64,000 nucleotides of DNA. Origin: Escherichia phage vB_EcoM-UFV09. The position numbers and the translations under genes were made by a program. This document shows positions 3,992 through 58,360 of this stretch, in pieces. The DNA lies in the sequence record MZ291552.2. The stretch is one strand, 5' to 3'. The notes beneath the pieces were generated by a model. It had not been told where the DNA came from. It did not search any database and was given only the letters and a program-made list of their open reading frames with translations. Position 1 is the first letter of the stretch. Every line of letters begins with the position of its first letter.

Positions 3992-4080
3992 GTTATTGAG
4001 TTGGTGCCATTATATACATCGTTTTCTGATTGTGTTTTGTGTGCTTTCAAAATGAAGAAAGGGGCCGAAGCCCCTTACGA

Positions 4081-5499
4081 TTATGGATAGGTATAGATGA
4101 TACCAGTTTCTAAAGCTGTTTTGTGAATGATGTATCCATTACGCGATTCTTGGACATCAACTTCTGGATAGTCTTTCATCATCTTCTGAAGCGTATAACG
4201 ATGCAAGTAGTACTTACTATCTGGGTCGTCAGTTTTCCAATCTTTACCTTCTTCAGTCATTTTTTGGATTTCATCCATAACCCACCAACCGCACCAGATA
4301 TAAGCTGAAGTACGGTGCGGAAGAGGATGAACATAAGGCAATTCACCTTCTGGTTCTGGAGCAACTTTATCAGTCACTTGAACTTGACCTGTTGTTTTAA
4401 CTGTTTTGCTATCATAATCAGTTGCTGTAACGACAGCAGTAACTTCAATAGTTTGACTTCCAACAGATGAGGTATCGACAGTATATACGTTAGTTGACCC
4501 TTCTACAGGAGAAGAATCTTTCTTCCACGAGTAAGTAATTTGTGCTTCTTCTGGAGCATCCGTAACATTAGCAGTAAATGTAGCCGAAGCATCTTGCTGA
4601 ACGTTAATAGAAGGAGGAGTCAATGTAACCTGTGGATTCATTGTCTTCTTATTAACTGTCAATGATACTTCATTAGAAGTAACTTCCTTTTCATTGTAAT
4701 TTTCTGCTGTTACTTGGGCTACGCATTTAATTCTTTTTACTCCACTTGTAGTTGGAGTATAGCTAAATGTAGAGTTAGTTTCTCCACCAACTTGTGAATC
4801 ATCTACATACCATTTATATGTAGCAGACGCTCCATCAGGTTGAGAAGCTAAGGCAGCAGTAAATTGAACTGGGGTTCCAATTACTCCAGCTGAAGGACTA
4901 GCAGGAGTTACTGCCAATGTAGTTGTCTGTGTCTTTTTATTAACAGTCAGTGATACTTCATTCGAAGTAACGGTTTTTTCATCATAATTTGTCGCGGTTA
5001 CTTGAGCTACACACTTGATTTTTTTAACTCCGCTTGCGGCAGGAGTGTAATTGAATGTAGCAGAAGTCGCTTCGTCTACAGGAGAACTGTCAACGTACCA
5101 TTGATACGTAGCAGATGCACCTGATGGCTGCGAAGCTAAAGCAGCGGTAAATTTAACAGCTGTTCCAATTACTCCTGCTGGAGGACTATTGGGAGTTACG
5201 GCTAAGGTAGTCGTCTGAGTTTTGTTTTTGACTGTGATAGTTGTAGTAGCTTCTGCTGTTTCAGCTTCAGATTCTGGAACTGTATTTGTTGCAACAACTT
5301 TAATAGTCTTTTAACCAGCAGGACCTTTTAATACATAATCAAAAGTTGCTTCAGACCCATCTTGTGGAGCATTATCTACACTCCAAGCATAAGTAATAGT
5401 TCCACCTCCAGTTTCACCACTGGGTGCAGCAGTAAACTGCTTGGTTTCATCAATAACTCCTGACGGTGCTTTAGGAGTTATATCAACTGTAAAAGCCAT
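4081..5499 (-). pseudogene. hoc: hoc (outer capsid decoration protein) interrupted by a single in-frame TAA at 5311..5313; reading frame otherwise open for 471 codons with four Ig-like domains plus capsid-binding C-terminus
   Basis: Track ORFs 5311..5499 and 4081..4917 are in one frame; I translated 4918..5310 by hand and found no other stop; stop falls where I recall T4 Hoc having Gln (GPAG-Q-KTIKV). Confidence 0.8.
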
Positions 5500-5508
5500 A
5501 AGTTATCC

Positions 5509-6189
5509 TTATTTTAATGTTACGAAAGAAGAATTGCGTGTTTCACGAATTAAAACTGATCCGTCGCGATTAATGTAATAAATTAAGCTAAACAAAGTTT
5601 GGTGTGCTGACGCGTGTTCAAAACTAGTTGGATGAGATTTCCAATCAGGAGTTTCAGCGATCCATTGATAAATCCACCAAGGAACCGTACAGAATCCTGG
5701 ATTTTTCCCCAATAATTGAAGATTCGGGCTAAAGTTTTCCGGAAGAGTAAATACAGACGGCTTTTCAGATTCAATAATCTCAGCTACAGCTTGTTCAAAC
5801 TTTTCTTCAACAAAAGGAGTGTCTTCAATCAAAACATCAGTATTTTCAGGAATTTTATCCGTTTCTACAACTTCAATTTTAATATCAGATTTAACTGGAG
5901 AATCAATCAGAAGCGCTGCTTCTGGATTAACTTCTTCATCGTCATATTTTAATCCCTCTGCAGCATCAGCAGCATCAATTAAGTCTTTAATAGATAACCC
6001 ATCAGTCTCTGGCATAGGTTCACTAGCGAGCTTCTGGAGGGCTTCTTCAATATCAACAACGATATTATCAAAAGATTTATTCTTTTTGACCTTTATACCA
6101 AACTGTTCAGCATATTCAGCTAATTTAGCTTTAGCTTCTTTATTATCATCAAGAGCCTTCAGCTCTGCAATATAATCTTTATCTATCAT
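5509..6189 (-). CDS. inh: Inh, inhibitor of prohead protease
   Basis: 226-aa acidic ORF immediately upstream of hoc, as in T4. Confidence 0.8.
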   Translation of the reverse strand: MIDKDYIAELKALDDNKEAKAKLAEYAEQFGIKVKKNKSFDNIVVDIEEALQKLASEPMPETDGLSIKDLIDAADAAEGLKYDDEEVNPEAALLIDSPVKSDIKIEVVETDKIPENTDVLIEDTPFVEEKFEQAVAEIIESEKPSVFTLPENFSPNLQLLGKNPGFCTVPWWIYQWIAETPDWKSHPTSFEHASAHQTLFSLIYYINRDGSVLIRETRNSSFVTLK

Positions 6190-16704: not shown

Positions 16705-16758
16705 TCCTCATGTTATGTCAGTAAGATTATTATAACACAACACGAGGGACTTGTAAAC
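16705..16758 (-). promoter_or_regulatory. Early promoter plus leader cassette, copy 1
   Basis: Minus strand GTTTAC-N18-TATAAT then leader with GAGGA; identical over 54 bp to 32013..32066. Confidence 0.6.
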
Positions 16759-18815
16759 TACATTTTGAACTTTTTAGACATTCCGTTGATGTTAACCAAA
16801 GAAGCTAAGATTTGAGAAACTTCGTTTTCCTCTTCTTTTGATTCTTCTACAAGGAATTGATTAAATCCAGCCATTGGACGAACTTCACCAGTTTCCATCA
16901 GATGGTCGCCATCATATACTGATTCTTCTAATTGTTCAGAAGGAGGAACGATTGTACCTTCGATTAGATACTTGTTATAAGCAGTTTCTTTCATCATGTA
17001 CGTACTTACTTTATTAATCTTCAGTAAAATTCCACGCGGCAAAATAACTTCAGCTTCGGATGGAAATCCTGATAAATGACCTGGAACGATAACTTTAACT
17101 CGTTCAGCTCCTTTAATTACCATACCTACATTAGTTTCAGCGTCTTCATTCGCATATGTAGAATGACTACCCATATGCATTAAATCTTCAGCATCAACTG
17201 AACCTTCTCCTTCACCAGAAAATACTGCTCCGGAATCATCTAAGGCCATATAATTTTTACCATATTCACCGAAGATATTTGGCTTGAGTGAAGTAGATAC
17301 AAAGTTCTTGAAATAGAACATTTTATTTTCTATATTATGACGTAAAGTTTTAAAGGTAACTTCTTGCCCACGATAAAGAGTAGTTCCTGGAGGAAGAACT
17401 GAACCTTTAGAAAATGCAGAATCCAGCGTCTCAATATGTTTAATAGCTCGTTCCATATATTCTTCACGGGTAGAATCAGGTTTACCTAGAAGGAACGAGT
17501 TCATTTCAACATATGAATCTGCGCAATAATCTTCAATTACATCAGACTCAGCCTGAGTTAATCCTTTTGGAGTTACTTCAGTGCTTGCATATTCATATGC
17601 CTGAGCAGCAGATTCATCAATTAATTTATAAATTCCATTCATTACAAATTGAATAATAGCTGTCTTTTCATCTGGTGTAGCTTTAGAACCTTTAACTAAA
17701 TCATTGACAATTTTCTTAATAACATCAAAGCTATTAGAAATATTAATGTCAGCAAGATCGCTTAAAATTTTATCAGTTTTATAATCAAAGAATTCTTTAT
17801 TCTTTAAATATTCTTGAGAACCTTGATATGTTATATCGCTCTGCAGCTTGATAGATGGATCGCGTAAACGTGCATGGGCCAATGCAATATGATTTCGGAA
17901 GCTTTCGAGTTCATAATCACTAGATTTAAAACGAGAAGCACTTCTCATACCACCGATAGCTCCTTTGCTAAAGTTTGAACCAACCTGAATAACGCCAGAG
18001 TTCATTGGTCCTTCTGCTTTATATACCGGAACTTTAGATTCAAACTCTTGATATTTCTTAGCAGCGAAGCTATCACCCTGAAGTGAAGCATCAACAGTAG
18101 AATATTGAGCTTGTGCTGCTAATCGACGACTAATTTTAGTTTTCTGAATAACAGCTTGATCCGTGCGCTTATCATTTTCTAAAGCAATAGAAGCAGCAAC
18201 AGCAACAGCTTTAGGAACAGCATTACCTGTTTTAACGTCTACATAAACATCACCAACCTTTGATTCAACTTTTGTGAATAACTCGGTTGAAATAGGAGGT
18301 ACACCTGGAATGTCTTCTAAATTGGCATTTTTACGGTAAACCATAATATATGCGTACTTTTTATCATAATCCCAGATTTCCTTTAAAAGAACATATCGAC
18401 CTGCTCCTTTAGTACGTACTAAACGGTCAGCAATAACTTGCATTTGCCGAGCAGCGCCATTTGTTTTACTTTTTAGTACGCGGAATAAGCATGCATCAAT
18501 TTTATACTGTTTCATTGTTTGAAGAGCAGTATCAAAAACAGCATTAATGACGCCAATTGGATTTCCACCCAAGTTTTTAAGCTTAACTAATGATAGTTTC
18601 TCATTAACGCCTATCATTACGATATGCATCATTTTGTCGCCTGGCTTAACGTTTTTATTCGTATCACCGCCAGAGGTGTATGTACAAAATCTAAATCCAG
18701 GAAGCACGCTTTCTTCACCTGCTTGAATAGCAAAAATTTGAGGTATTTTATGCTTAGGATTTAAGTTAACAACCGGCGCCGAAGCGCCGTCAAATAATTC
18801 TGTAATAAGTTCCAT
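16758..18815 (-). CDS. Alt-like ADP-ribosyltransferase paralogue (685 aa)
   Basis: Paralogous to the adjacent 697-aa ORF (shared MELITELFD N-terminus); YRGQ, FVSTS and EAEVILPRG motifs resemble an ART R-S-E triad. Confidence 0.8.
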   Translation of the reverse strand: MELITELFDGASAPVVNLNPKHKIPQIFAIQAGEESVLPGFRFCTYTSGGDTNKNVKPGDKMMHIVMIGVNEKLSLVKLKNLGGNPIGVINAVFDTALQTMKQYKIDACLFRVLKSKTNGAARQMQVIADRLVRTKGAGRYVLLKEIWDYDKKYAYIMVYRKNANLEDIPGVPPISTELFTKVESKVGDVYVDVKTGNAVPKAVAVAASIALENDKRTDQAVIQKTKISRRLAAQAQYSTVDASLQGDSFAAKKYQEFESKVPVYKAEGPMNSGVIQVGSNFSKGAIGGMRSASRFKSSDYELESFRNHIALAHARLRDPSIKLQSDITYQGSQEYLKNKEFFDYKTDKILSDLADINISNSFDVIKKIVNDLVKGSKATPDEKTAIIQFVMNGIYKLIDESAAQAYEYASTEVTPKGLTQAESDVIEDYCADSYVEMNSFLLGKPDSTREEYMERAIKHIETLDSAFSKGSVLPPGTTLYRGQEVTFKTLRHNIENKMFYFKNFVSTSLKPNIFGEYGKNYMALDDSGAVFSGEGEGSVDAEDLMHMGSHSTYANEDAETNVGMVIKGAERVKVIVPGHLSGFPSEAEVILPRGILLKINKVSTYMMKETAYNKYLIEGTIVPPSEQLEESVYDGDHLMETGEVRPMAGFNQFLVEESKEEENEVSQILASLVNINGMSKKFKM

Positions 18816-44852: not shown

Positions 44853-47800
44853 ATGGCCGAGATTAAAAGAAAGTTCAGAGCAGAAGACGGTCTGGACGCA
44901 GGTGGTGATAAAATAATCAACGTAGCTTTAGCTGATCGTACCGTAGGAACTGACGGTGTTAACGTTGATTACTTAATTCAAGAAAACACAGTTCAACAAT
45001 ATGATCCAACTCGTGGATATTTAAAAGATTTTGTAATCATTTATGATAACCGCTTTTGGGCTGCTATAAATGATATTCCAAAACCAGCAGGAGCTTTTAA
45101 TAGCGTACGATGGAGAGCGTTACGTACTGATGCAAACTGGACAACTGTTTCGTCAGGACCTTATCAATTAAAATCAGGCGAATCGATTTCAGTTAACACT
45201 GCAGCGGGTAATGACATTACATTTACTTTGCCATCTTCTCCAATTGATGGTGATACTATCGTTCTCCAAGATATTGGAGGAAAACCTGGAGTTAACCAGG
45301 TTTTAATTACAGCTCCGGTACAAAGCATTGTAAACTTTAGAGGTCAACAAGTACGCTCAGTACTAATGACTCATCCAAAATCACAGATAGTTTTAATTTT
45401 TAGTAATCGTCTGTGGCAAATGTATGTTGCTGATTATAGCAGAGAAGCGGCAGTTGTAACGCCAGCGAGTCTTTATCAAGCGCAATCAAACGATTTTATC
45501 GTGCGTAGATTTACTTCTGCTTCAGCAATTAATATTAAACTTCCTAGATTTGCTAATCATGGGGATATTATTAATTTTGTTGATTTAGATAAATTAAATC
45601 CGTTATATCATACTATCGTTACTACATACGATGAAACGACTTCAGTACAAGAAGTTGGAACTCATTCCATTGAAGGCCGTACATCTATTGATGGTTTCTT
45701 AATGTTTGATGATAATGAGAAATTGTGGAGATTATTTGACGGTGATAGTAAAGCGCGTTTACGCATTATAACAACTAATTCAAACATTCGTCCAAATGAA
45801 GAAGTCATGGTATTTGGCGCGAATAATGGAACAACTCAAACGATTGAACTTCAGCTTCCAACTGATATTTCTATCGGTGATACTGTTAAGATTTCCATGA
45901 ATTACATGAGAAAAGGACAAACAGTTAAAATCAAAGCTGCCGGTGAAGATAAAATTGCTTCTTCAGTTCAATTGTTGCAATTTCCAAAACGTTCAGAATA
46001 CCCACCTGAAACTAAATGGGTGACTGTTCAAGAATTAGTTTTTAACGGCGAAACTAATTATGTTCCAGTTTTACAGCTTGCTTATATCGAAGATTCCGAT
46101 GGAAAATATTGGGTTGTACAGCAAAACGTTCCAACAGTTGAAAGAGTAGACTCTTTAAATAATTCTACTAGAGCAAGATTAGGTGTAATTGCATTAGCTA
46201 CACAGGCTCAAGCTAATGCAGATTTAGAAAATTCTCCACAAAAAGAATTGGCAATTACTCCAGAAACGTTAGCTAATCGTACTGCTACAGAAACTCGTAG
46301 AGGTATTGCAAGAATAGCAACAACTGCGCAAGTAAACCAGGATACCACATTCTCTTTTGCAGATGACCTTATCATCACTCCTAAAAAGTTGAATGAAAGA
46401 ACTGCTACAGAAACTCGCAGAGGTGTCGCAGAAATTGCTACGCAGCAGGAAACTAATACAGGTACTGATGATACTACAATCATTACTCCTAAAAAGCTTC
46501 AAGCTCGCCAAGGTTCTGAATCATTATCTGGTATTGTAACTTTTGTATCTACTGCAGGAGCTACTCCAGCTTCTAGCCGCGAATTAAATGGTACGAATGT
46601 TTATAATAAAAACACTAATAACTTAGTTGTTTCACCTAAAGCCTTGGATCAGTATAAAGCTACTCCAACACAGCAAGGTGCGGTAATTTTAGCAGTTGAA
46701 AGTGAAGTAATTGCTGGACAAAGTCAAGAAGGATGGGCAAATGCGGTTGTAACGCCAGAAACGTTACATAAAAAGACATCAACTGATGGAAGAATTGGTT
46801 TAATTGAAATTGCTACTCAAAGTGAAGTTAATACAGGAACTGATTATACTCGTGCAGTCACTCCTAAAACTTTAAATGACCGTAGAGCAACTGAAAGTTT
46901 AAGTGGTATAGCTGAAATTGCTACACAAGTTGAATTCGACGCAGGCGTCGACGATACTCGTATCTCTACACCATTAAAAATTAAAACTAGATTTAATAGT
47001 ACTGATCGTACTTCAATTGCTACACAAGTTGAATTCGACGCAGGCGTCGACGATACTCGTATCTCTACACCATTAAAAATTAAAACTAGATTTAATAGTA
47101 CTGATCGTACTTCTGTTGTTGCTCTATCTGGATTAGTTGAATCAGGAACTCTCTGGGACCATTATACCCTTAATATTCTTGAAGCAAATGAGACACAACG
47201 TGGTACACTTCGTGTGGCTACACAAGTTGAAGCTGCTGCCGGAAAATTAGATAATGTTTTAATAACTCCTAAAAAGCTTTTAGGTACTAAATCTACCGAA
47301 TCGCAAGAAGGTGTTATTAAAGTTGCAACTCAGTCTGAAACTGTGGCTGGAACGTCAGTAAACACTGCTGTATCTCCAAAAAATTTAAAATGGATTGTAC
47401 AGAGTGAACCTACCTGGGCAGCTACTACTGCGATAAGAGGTTTTGTTAAAACTTCATCTGGTTCAATTACATTTGTCGGTAATGATACAGTCGGTTCTAC
47501 CCAAGATTTAGAACTGTATGAGAAAAATAGCTATGCAGTATCACCATATGAATTAAACCGTGTATTAGCAAATTATTTGCCATTAAAAGCAAAAGCTGCA
47601 GATAGTAATTTATTGGATGGTCTAGATTCATCTCAGTTCATTCGTAGGGACATTGCGCAGACGGTTAATGGTTCACTAACCTTAACCCAACAAACGAATC
47701 TGAGTGCCCCTCTTGTATCATCTAGTACTGCTACGTTTGGTGGATCAGTTTCAGCAAATAGTACATTAACTATTTCTAATACTGGAACAGCAACTCGATT

Positions 47801-50672: not shown

Positions 50673-53600
50673 ATGGCTACTTTAAAACAAATACAATTTA
50701 AAAGAAGCAAAACGGCAGGTCAACGTCCAGCTGCTTCAGTATTAGCCGAAGGTGAATTGGCTATAAACTTAAAAGACCGTGTACTTTTTACTAAAGATGA
50801 CCAGGGAAATATTATTGATTTAGGTTTTGCTAAAGGCGGTAGTATTGACGGGAATGTTATTCATAAAGGCAATTATAACCAAACTGGAGATTATACTTTA
50901 AACGGTACATTCACCCAGACTGGTAATTTTAATTTAACCGGTATTGCTCGAGTAACTCGTGATATTATTGCTGCTGGGCAGATTATGACTGAAGGCGGAG
51001 AACTTATTACAAAAAGTTCAGGTACATCACATGTTCGTTTTCATGATTCAGCTGACCGTGAACGCGGTATTATTTTTTCTCCTGCTAATGATGGATTAAC
51101 TACACAAGTAATTAACATCAGAGTTCAAGATTACAAAGCCGGTTCAGAAAATACTTTTTCTTTTAGCGGTAGTGGTCTTTTCACATCGCCGGAAGTTTCT
51201 GCATGGAAATCTATGTCAACCCCCCAGATTTTGACTAACAAAGTCATTACTAATAATAAATCTACGAGTGATTATGACATTTATTCGATGGCAGACAATG
51301 TTCCATTGTCTGAAAGCACTACTGCTATTAATCATCTTCGTGTTATGCGTAATGCAGTTGGTTCTGGTATTTTTCATGAAGTTAAAGATAATGATGGAAT
51401 AACATGGTATAGTGGAGATGGATTAGATGCTTATCTGTGGTCATTTACCTGGAGCGGCGGAATTAAATCAAGTCACTCAATTTCCATCGGTTTAACACCC
51501 GGACCTAAGGATTACTCAATATTAGGACCGTCTAGTATCGCTTTAGGAGATAATGATACTGGATTTAAATGGCATCAAGACGGATATTATTTCAGTGTTA
51601 ACAATGGCACAAAAACGTTTTTATTTAGTCCCAGCGAAACAACTAGCCTAAGAAAATTTGTAGCTGGATATTCTACTAACGGAACCGATTTAACTACTCC
51701 TCCAACTGAAAATTATGCTCTTGCTACTGTAGTGACATACCACGATAATAACGCGTTTGAAGATGGTCAGACTCTTTTAGGATATTATCAAGGCGGTAAT
51801 TATCATCACTATTTCCGCGGTAAAGGTACTACAAACATTAATACTCACGGTGGTTTGTTAGTTACTCCTGGTAATATTGACGTTATTGGTGGTTCTGTTA
51901 ATATCGATGGTAGAAATAATGCTTCTACACTGATGTTTAGAGGTAACACAACTGGTAGTAGTTCAGTTGATAATATGACAATTTCCGTTTGGGGCAATAC
52001 GTTTACTAATCCTAGTGTAGGTAATCGTAAAAACGTCATGGAAATTTCTGATGCAACTAGTTGGATGAGCTATATTCAAAGACTTACAACAGGTGAAGTA
52101 GAAATGAACGTTAACGGTTCATTTGAATCATCTGGTGTTACTGCTGGAAATAGAGGAGTTCACACAACAGGCGAAATTTCATCTGGAGCAGTGAATGCGC
52201 TTCGTATTTGGAACGCAGATTATGGAGCCATTTTTAGACGTTCAGAAGGTAGTCTTCATATTATTCCGACTGCTTATGGTGAAGGCAAAAATGGTGATAT
52301 CGGTCCACTTCGTCCATTTAGTATTGCTTTGGATACTGGTAAGGTTGTTATTCCAGATTTAGAATCAAGTTATAACACGTTTGCTGCAAATGGCTACATT
52401 AAATTTGCTGGTCATGGCGCGGGTGCAGGTGGTTATGATATTCAGTATTCACAAGCTGCTCCTATTTTCCAAGAAATCGATGATGCTGCTGTAAGCAAAT
52501 ATTATCCTATTGTTAAACAGAAGTTTTTAAATGGTAAAGCTGTCTGGTCTTTGGGTACTGAAATTAATTCTGGTACATTTGTTTTACATCATTTGAAAGA
52601 AGATGGTTCACAAGGCCATACATCAAGATTTAATGCTGATGGTACAGTCAATTTCCCCGATAACGTTCAAGTCGGTGGTGGTGAAGCTACTATTGCTCGT
52701 AATGGTAATATTTTCTCAGATATTTGGAAATCGTTTACTTCTGCGGGAGAAACCACAAATATTCGCGATGCAATAGCTACTCGTGTTGCCAAAGAAGGCG
52801 ATACGATGACTGGCAAATTAATCGTTAAAAGAGGCTCTGACGCTATTAACATTGCTGCCGATGAAAATGATTCTTGCTATTTACTTGGAACATCGGGTGG
52901 AGCGAATTCATGGTACATTGGTAAAGGAGGAGCAGATGACACTGCTTCATTTTATAATTTCAAAACTACCGCAGGAATTACTCTTAATAGTGTTGGTGAT
53001 ATTGATTTTAACGTTAAAAATCAAGCTACTGCAGCTTCATTAAATTTTTATCGTTTATATTTAAATGGAAGACAGTGGACAGCTACACAAGGACATGGAT
53101 ATAATAATCAATGGCAAACAGAAGCCCCATTCTTCGTTGACTTTGGCGAATCTGTTCCGAAAGATAGTTATATGCCTATAATTAAAGGAAGAAGCCAAAT
53201 CATTAACGAAGGATATGCCACAAAGGCAGATTTTGGTATTATTCGATTAGGCGGAAATGCTACTTGGGGAAATGCAGTAATTCGTGTTGGTTCTGCAGAA
53301 AGCGGAGATAGCAGTCATCCTAATGCAATATTTGTGTTTCAGGCTAATGGCGATTTTAAAGCTCCGGCTGGCCTTCGTGCTGGTGTTAACTTGGGCGTCG
53401 GCACAATTCCAGTATGGGGCGGAGCATCTATCGCCATCGGTGATGATGATACCGGTTTAGTTCATGGCGGCGATGGTCGAATTAATATGTATGCTAACGC
53501 GCAGCATATTGCATCATGGGGCACGATGTATCAATCTCATCCAGGCCTTTGGGATTCATATGGAGCTTTTTGGACAGAAGTTGGCAAAGCAATTATTTCT

Positions 53601-53999
53601 CATGGCCATTTAGTTCAGGCGAATGACAGTTATTCCACATATGTACGCGATGTTTATGTCCGCTCTGATATTCGTGTCAAAAAGGACCTAGTTAAATTTG
53701 AAAATGCTTCTGAGAAGCTTTCAAAAATTAACGGTTACACTTATATGCAGAAGCGAGGTCTAGATGAAGAAGGTAATCAAAAATGGGAACCTAACGCAGG
53801 TTTAATTGCTCAAGAAGTTCAAGCTATTTTACCTGAATTAGTTGAAGGCGATCAGGATGGTGAAGCACTACTTCGTTTGAACTACAACGGTGTAATCGGT
53901 TTAAATACAGCTGCAATCAATGAGCATACTGCAGAAATTGCAGAACTTAAGTCAGAGATTGAAGAGCTTAAAAAATTAGTCAAATCATTGTTAAAATAA
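50673..53999 (+). CDS. 37: Long tail fibre distal subunit gp37 with C-terminal intramolecular-chaperone-like domain (T2-type)
   Basis: 1108-aa ORF; C-terminal about 110 aa (SDIRVKKDL...coiled-coil tail) resembles the autoproteolytic chaperone domains of phage fibres and tailspikes. Confidence 0.9.
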
Positions 54000-57603: not shown

Positions 57604-58239
57604 TCACAGTTCAGATGCTACAGTTATTACTGCTTCAATGTTTTCTGCTGAGCGTTTAATGTCAAGATACACATTACCGTTTTTAGCGATTTTACATGAC
57701 ATTCCGATGTCAGTAAATTTCTGAATATGATGTTCCATCATTTTGTATCCAAAAATTCGCATGTTTCCATTATTGTTAATTTCAAAATTGCGAATTCCGT
57801 GAGTGCGTTTTTCTAAAATAGCAAGATAGTTACTGCGGTAAGTTTCAACCTTTTTAAGAACAAATCCATTTTCATCTAAAAGTTTTAACATGAGGTCTTT
57901 ATCTTCTTCCATATCGGAAGTAATTTCGCGAGCTTTACGAGTTGCTCGTTTTTTCAGCAGTTCGGGAGCATTTTCCTGTGCATATAAAGTTGCTGCATTT
58001 GAAATAATATCCTGAGCTTCACCAGTAATGATTAATCCATCACCAGATTTCTCTACCAGGCCTTTTTTAATCAATACCCCAATATTATTATTAACTACTG
58101 CGTTACCTAAATCTGGATGCACCTCACGAACTTCTGCAGCTGTAATGAAATCTTTCTTAGCAATGGTAATTAAAATCGCAGCAGTTTTTTCATTCAGAAC
58201 ATCGTTAGAAGCTTTGATGATGTAAGTTACTTTAGACAT
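57604..58239 (-). CDS. motA: MotA middle-transcription activator
   Basis: 211-aa ORF recognised as T4 MotA. Confidence 0.95.
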   Translation of the reverse strand: MSKVTYIIKASNDVLNEKTAAILITIAKKDFITAAEVREVHPDLGNAVVNNNIGVLIKKGLVEKSGDGLIITGEAQDIISNAATLYAQENAPELLKKRATRKAREITSDMEEDKDLMLKLLDENGFVLKKVETYRSNYLAILEKRTHGIRNFEINNNGNMRIFGYKMMEHHIQKFTDIGMSCKIAKNGNVYLDIKRSAENIEAVITVASEL

Positions 58240-58320: not shown

Positions 58321-58360
58321 AAAAAATTAAAATAAAAAAGGGAGAGCCTTCGGCTCTCCC
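58321..58360 (-). terminator. Intrinsic terminator downstream of gene 52
   Basis: gggagagcc-ttcg-ggctctccc hairpin followed on the minus strand by a U-rich tract. Confidence 0.6.

Follow-up and report, generated by a model that had tools for sequence, protein, structure and literature searches.

The minus-strand reading frame at positions 5499..4081 of the window, by which we mean the whole analysed stretch of 64,000 nucleotides from Escherichia phage vB_EcoM-UFV09, reads like the hoc gene of phage T4 and is open from end to end except for one in-frame ochre codon. The question raised by this locus is what such a frame represents: a gene that was inactivated only recently, a gene that decayed long ago in a Hoc-less lineage, a gene that still yields a capsid protein through a restart behind the stop or through suppression of it, or an intact gene with an error in its sequence record.

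Identity and domain layout of the locus

Translation of the frame from 5499 down to 4081 gave 473 codons in total, namely 471 sense codons, one internal TAA at 5311..5313 and the terminal TAA, which agrees with the preliminary description of 471 sense codons and a single in-frame stop. The read-through product has 472 aa, as compared with 376 aa in T4. According to our own estimate, about 30 stops would be expected in 472 codons of a random frame with a G+C content of about 35%, so that a single internal stop speaks for a broken gene rather than an ORF open by chance. The name hoc given to it at the outset was correct, since the read-through protein hits T4 Hoc chains of the PDB (5vf3_Z and others) with E = 4.2e-219, PHROG 1149 ('Hoc-like head decoration') matches both halves of the split frame, and the neighbours are those of T4. 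The gene lies between inh and 24.3/24.2/rnlB as in T4, with an inh homologue of 226 aa (5509..6189) upstream and, downstream, small ORFs matching T4 24.3 and 24.2 followed by RNA ligase 2. Per-domain identity of the read-through protein to T4 Hoc is 79-98%. The locus has full-length homology to T4 Hoc, the domain layout and the genomic position of hoc, and what it lacks is an uninterrupted full-length frame, because TAA occupies codon 63. It is the hoc gene in the form of a null allele (4081..5499, minus strand), real yet ordinary. When ORFs are listed mechanically, it comes out as two, a 62-aa ATG-started ORF (5499..5311) and a 278-aa TTG-started ORF (4917..4081).

Four units of about 93-96 aa, with Pfam PKD and Ig matches, precede a capsid-binding domain, all on the minus strand; the limits of the T4 Hoc domains were taken from the literature (PMC10385173). 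Ig-like domain 1 (aa 1-93, 5221..5499) holds the stop and is identical to T4 domain 1 at 79/93 positions. The extra copy is Ig-like domain 2 (aa 94-189, 4933..5220), which shares 76/96 residues (79%) with T4 domain 2. Ig-like domain 3 (aa 190-285, 4645..4932), which has a Pfam PKD match, shares 88/96 with T4 domain 2 and is its orthologue, and Ig-like domain 4 (aa 286-376, 4372..4644) is the orthologue of T4 domain 3 (81/91). The domain at the C terminus that binds the capsid (aa 377-472, 4084..4371) is identical to T4 residues 281-376 at 94/96 positions. On alignment to T4, the difference between 472 and 376 aa is one exact 96-aa insertion. The domain coordinates proposed earlier were roughly right but about 5 nt off. 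The preliminary description had also placed four Ig-like domains downstream of the stop; this count holds for the whole frame, but because the stop sits inside domain 1, only three complete Ig-like domains and the capsid-binding domain lie 3' of it.

Between the tandem domains 2 and 3, identity is 79.2% in protein (76/96) and 74.7% in DNA, which bears out the early figure of about 80 percent, and they differ by 38 synonymous and 20 non-synonymous codon changes. The excess of synonymous changes agrees with the older internal duplication suggested beforehand, and it indicates that the pair comes from an old duplication under purifying selection. The extra Ig domain itself is a common variant that is not special to this phage. 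We found a hoc of 1419-1425 nt in 21 of 60 records sampled evenly from 678 matching phage records, and the 46 full-length matches in that sample comprised these 21 long forms and 25 forms of about 1131 nt. Four-Ig and three-Ig Hoc are thus about equally common, and the 1419-nt form occurs in about one third of the sampled Tequatrovirus records. The lengths of Hoc homologues in IMG/VR group at about 280, 367-378, 471-472 and at least 545 aa, and such discrete classes are consistent with the gain and loss of whole Ig modules. Researchers have reported a range of 1 to 10 Ig domains for Hoc, and a two-Ig variant has also been described (PMC10385173, PMC11853027). The layout Ig1, Ig2, Ig2', Ig3 and capsid-binding domain is the same in ECP52, ECO4, PP01, Sf23 and many Tequatroviruses; however, the 472-aa Hoc genes of ECP52, ECO4, PP01 and Sf23 are intact, whereas the window hoc carries the ochre codon.

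Origin and age of the ochre codon

The stop is codon 63 of the frame (5311..5313, minus strand; context GGT TAA AAG) and derives from CAA (Gln). Alignment and base comparison showed that codon 63 is CAA (Gln63) in T4, ECP52, UFV05 and UFV06, and TAA in the window genome, UFV10 and UFV11; the mutated base is window position 5313, a C-to-T change on the hoc strand. The preliminary description had given CAA for T4 and proposed exactly this single change, and the alignments with T4 and ECP52 as well as the sister isolates support it. What the comparison reveals is one substitution in an otherwise wild-type frame whose close relatives keep the ancestral CAA, as in a hoc nonsense mutant. The hoc region of the window is 100% identical to that of Escherichia phages vB_EcoM-UFV10 and UFV11 (wastewater, Brazil) and 99.9% identical to that of UFV05 and UFV06, and the gene calls of 3 public contigs, OP555981 among them, include the identical 62-aa ORF. 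We found no publication describing UFV05, UFV06, UFV10 or UFV11 in our literature search.

The closest intact relative, ECP52, is 98.5% identical in DNA over hoc and differs by 11 synonymous and 7 missense codon changes, which by our own arithmetic (about 333 synonymous and 1083 non-synonymous sites) gives a dN/dS of about 0.2. Compared with ECP52, no second lesion or other decay was found in the window hoc frame. The low dN/dS and the single lesion suggest that hoc was functional and under purifying selection until very recently.

The sister isolates UFV05 and UFV06 carry a second and different lesion. A single base that is present in the window, the A of codon 27 (AGT; position 5421, minus strand), is deleted in both, so that the frame shifts and ends at a stop at codon 41; the local change is CACCCAGTGG -> CACCCGTGG, which involves no homopolymer. 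The background, the gene, the domain and the predicted outcome are the same as in the window, but the lesion differs, and codon 63 is still CAA. Because the sites of codon 27 and codon 63 are both intact in all outgroups, the common ancestor would have been hoc+, and by this comparison an ancestral intact hoc has been lost twice, independently and very recently, once in each sub-lineage. The preliminary description would have been refuted by close relatives with the same stop together with further decay of the frame; this is not what is seen, as UFV11 has the same stop and no other lesion, and UFV05 and UFV06 are without the stop and have a lesion of their own. UFV13, which comes from the same laboratory, was considered as a further sibling at hoc and rejected, as it has an intact three-Ig gene of 1131 nt.

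How closely these phages are related can be seen from the rest of the window. UFV10 equals the window over 64 kb, bar one 99-bp duplication. UFV05 shows 8 real differences from the window over the same 64 kb, and 2 of them are the hoc lesions of the opposite lineages. Three others are missense differences in the distal tail fibre gene gp37 (50673..53999, plus strand), at 51760 (E363G), 53502 (Q944E) and 53520 (G950S); the remainder are a missense difference in motA at 58088 (N51S), the length of an intergenic A-run at 58327, and a synonymous difference at 18609 in a 685-aa ORF (16758..18815, minus strand). Two of the three gp37 differences lie near the receptor-binding tip, and this position suggests a possible host-range adaptation between the sister isolates. 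In all, the comparison of UFV10 or the window with UFV05 covered about 114 of 166 kb, on either side of record positions of about 50-102 kb. In this wider comparison, UFV05 was seen to have a 7-bp tandem duplication (AATCCAC) in rIIA at about 1493 of its own record (compare 1482 in UFV10), which shifts the frame and leaves the gene annotated as split; rIIA is classically non-essential, and its loss, which adds a second inactivated gene to this clone, is consistent with selection in culture or by plaque picking.

Taken together, we consider it very probable that hoc carries a very recent spontaneous Gln63 CAA-to-TAA mutation in a Tequatrovirus of the UFV10/UFV11 lineage, and that its particles are predicted to be Hoc-less. 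The ancestral hoc would have been an intact 472-aa four-Ig gene, the common variant that arose by the old tandem duplication of Ig domain 2. In the mutant, translation would end after 62 residues, within the first Ig-like domain, and the sole expected product is the N-terminal part of Ig domain 1, 62 aa long (5311..5499, minus strand). No Hoc is expected on the capsid, because this product is without the capsid-binding domain. Phages of the window type are viable, being plaque isolates with complete genomes. The allele may have persisted through relaxed selection, or through positive selection during enrichment or propagation without a mucosal surface. The preliminary description had offered a choice between a naturally Hoc-minus phage and a nonsense mutant, and the two merge here: the nonsense mutant stands, and the phage is for that reason predicted to be Hoc-minus.

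Restart, sequence error and suppression

An internal restart might still put a truncated Hoc on the capsid. The candidates, which are the next in-frame starts after the stop, are ATG287, which would give Ig domain 4 and the capsid-binding domain (186 aa), and TTG195, which would give the 278-aa ORF found in GenBank. The capsid-binding domain of the window gene is intact and 94/96 identical to that of T4, there are naturally short Hoc proteins that have one or two Ig domains (PMC10385173), and the 278-aa TTG ORF was called by Phanotate in all four deposits, but such ORF calls are merely mechanical, and neither candidate has a recognisable Shine-Dalgarno sequence upstream (...acagacaactacaTTG and ...taataagaagacaATG). 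We listed all in-frame ATG, GTG and TTG codons after the stop, and none had a good Shine-Dalgarno sequence. The two starts also lie 132 and 224 codons past the stop, which is too far for termination-reinitiation. We therefore regard a truncated Hoc on the capsid as unlikely.

As a second alternative, TAA could be an error of sequencing or of the consensus, with CAA in the actual phage and full-length Hoc as its product. The sibling assemblies do contain evident artefacts, which are exact 99-bp tandem duplications that differ between them, and the consensus quality of deposits with assembly artefacts is not to be assumed perfect. Nevertheless, because these closure duplications are at different places, UFV10, UFV11 and the window appear to be separate assemblies, and the T is common to all three. 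The records are otherwise identical base for base over 64 kb, which points to a very low error rate. Moreover, the change is a substitution and not a homopolymer-length error, and the UFV05/06 lesion is also outside homopolymers and common to two records. An error at this base is thus quite improbable. As for the duplications themselves, the one in the window lies in gp34 (proximal long tail fibre), where 46916-47014 is repeated exactly and in frame as 47015-47113 on the plus strand; it is absent from UFV05, UFV06, UFV10 and UFV11, and a search of 50,697 phage records did not find its junction. In UFV10, another exact 99-bp duplication lies within the mod (ADP-ribosyltransferase) gene, and in UFV11 there must be one at yet another place. 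Most likely, these duplications are assembler k-mer overlaps left at the closure of circular contigs and not biology.

Suppression of the stop, by an ochre suppressor of phage or host or by programmed read-through, would allow the full-length four-Ig Hoc to be made, and we consider it slightly less probable still. The 409 codons past the stop are fully open, but the recent lesion explains an open downstream frame equally well. T-even phages are able to evolve suppressor tRNAs, and the phage tRNA-Gln(TTG) is one mutation away from an ochre suppressor; however, a TTA anticodon is missing from all 11 phage tRNAs, and the search for an ochre suppressor tRNA was negative both among the 11 tRNAs of the UFV10 cluster and within the 64-kb window, which holds no tRNA. 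Both release factors recognise UAA, and E. coli shows very little natural read-through. Only the UFV10/11 clone has the stop, which is hence no conserved recoding site. The window hoc is accompanied by neither a cognate phage tRNA nor a conserved stop.

Loss of Hoc in relatives and its significance

T2 offers the contrasting case of an old loss. In the comparison with T4 and T2 that had been proposed at the outset, T4 has CAA at codon 63, and in T2 (PV958097.1, 151-1267) hoc has deletions of 11 bp, 1 bp and 2 bp when set against T4, and its annotation lists three fragments. T2 is thereby confirmed, at the level of its sequence, as naturally Hoc-less. The window phage and T2 are both fully viable Tequatroviruses whose hoc is disrupted, but T2 shows old decay by three frameshifting deletions, that is, several independent lesions of the frame, whereas the window has a single point lesion in a conserved frame. 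Further split hoc genes were found in SfPhi01 (1-base insertion, codon 252), in UPWr_E2 (A7 -> A6, codon 159), in JK42 and vB_EcoM_FN (both in the record sample) and in one IMG/VR genome (frameshifted), and altogether in roughly 5-8% of the sampled deposited relatives. That the window hoc is likewise an old decaying pseudogene of the T2 kind, the fixed state of a Hoc-less lineage, is an idea to which the three T2 deletions and these split genes lend some colour, but it is hardly credible for a gene with a single lesion, a dN/dS of about 0.2 relative to ECP52, and CAA still in sister isolates that differ at 8 sites per 64 kb.

A closer parallel to the recent nonsense mutation is T4 HAP1 from the Dabrowska laboratory, in which the spontaneous hoc mutation C496T turned CAA (Gln166) into TAA and the particles are without Hoc (PMC10580926). 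The gene is the same, the mutation is of the same C-to-T, CAA -> TAA type, and it is spontaneous and viable in both. The differences are that the HAP1 stop is at Q166, at 44% of the protein length of the three-Ig T4 gene, in a laboratory-selected phage whose particles were seen to be Hoc-less, whereas the window stop is at Q63, within the first Ig domain encoded by a four-Ig gene of wastewater isolates, and its loss of Hoc is predicted. The window lesion is a further instance of an already documented mutation type. The hoc strand also has homopolymer runs that are potential slippage sites, at window positions 5025 (A7), 4979 (A6) and 4265 (A6); the UPWr_E2 frameshift is the loss of one A from the run at 5025, and neither lesion of the UFV clones lies within a homopolymer. 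The idea that hoc is a contingency locus was set aside, as it goes unmentioned in a preprint on such loci in phages, and a published evolution experiment (gut-on-chip) yielded only the missense change D246N in hoc, with no hoc null alleles in test tubes.

Only one thing is notable here, namely that hoc was broken by different lesions in sister isolates. By our own arithmetic, the probability that at least 2 of 8 random differences fall in hoc, which makes up 2.2% of the window, is about 0.013, a value that ignores the need for inactivation, nonsense changes being only 4.6% of the possible point substitutions in hoc. Two independent nulls in Ig domain 1, in sub-lineages that are 8 sites per 64 kb apart, may be read as a sign that Hoc display is actively selected against in this phage lineage, which we regard as possible but doubtful. 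If this were true, the Hoc fibre would be costly in some condition, for example when a host defence or surface trap engages Hoc, or during a propagation or purification step, and the recurrent loss of hoc (about 5-8% of deposited Tequatrovirus genomes) would be adaptive rather than neutral decay. Nevertheless, drift or plaque picking with recurrent loss of non-essential functions is a sufficient explanation of the double hit in hoc, because loss-of-function mutations survive only in dispensable genes, and UFV05 has lost rIIA as well. The mutations are too few to separate selection against Hoc from drift in a dispensable gene.

Hoc, whose place on the virion is the centre of the gp23 hexamers, mediates the adherence of phages to mucus, and T4-type capsids have in it their main display scaffold and antigen. 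If an isolate for therapy or biocontrol were silently without Hoc, its in vivo behaviour would differ in mucus retention, immunogenicity and aggregation. The paired knock-outs of the sister isolates amount to a small natural experiment on the cost of Hoc outside a mucosal setting. Otherwise, the locus confirms known biology, in that phages can do without hoc and that Hoc varies in its number of Ig domains.

Directly after hoc, at 4059..4076 on the minus strand, lies a hairpin with a T-run that resembles an intrinsic terminator, and because it stands directly 3' of hoc, polarity on downstream genes is unlikely. A weak antisense sigma-70-like promoter match (5311..5339, plus strand; TTAACC...CATAAT) that overlaps the mutated base was taken as chance, the region having 4 matches of this kind as compared with 7.0 expected from shuffles.

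The gene is also mis-annotated in its deposits. In GenBank records OP555981, OP555982, OP572230 and OP555980, hoc is broken into four ORFs, namely an N-terminal piece of 62 aa or 40 aa, a 31-aa out-of-frame piece, a 40-aa antisense piece and the 278-aa TTG-started piece, labelled 'capsid and scaffold protein' or 'hypothetical protein'. The 278-aa, 31-aa and 40-aa ORFs inside hoc are gene-caller artefacts, and the correct annotation for hoc in these deposits is disrupted hoc.
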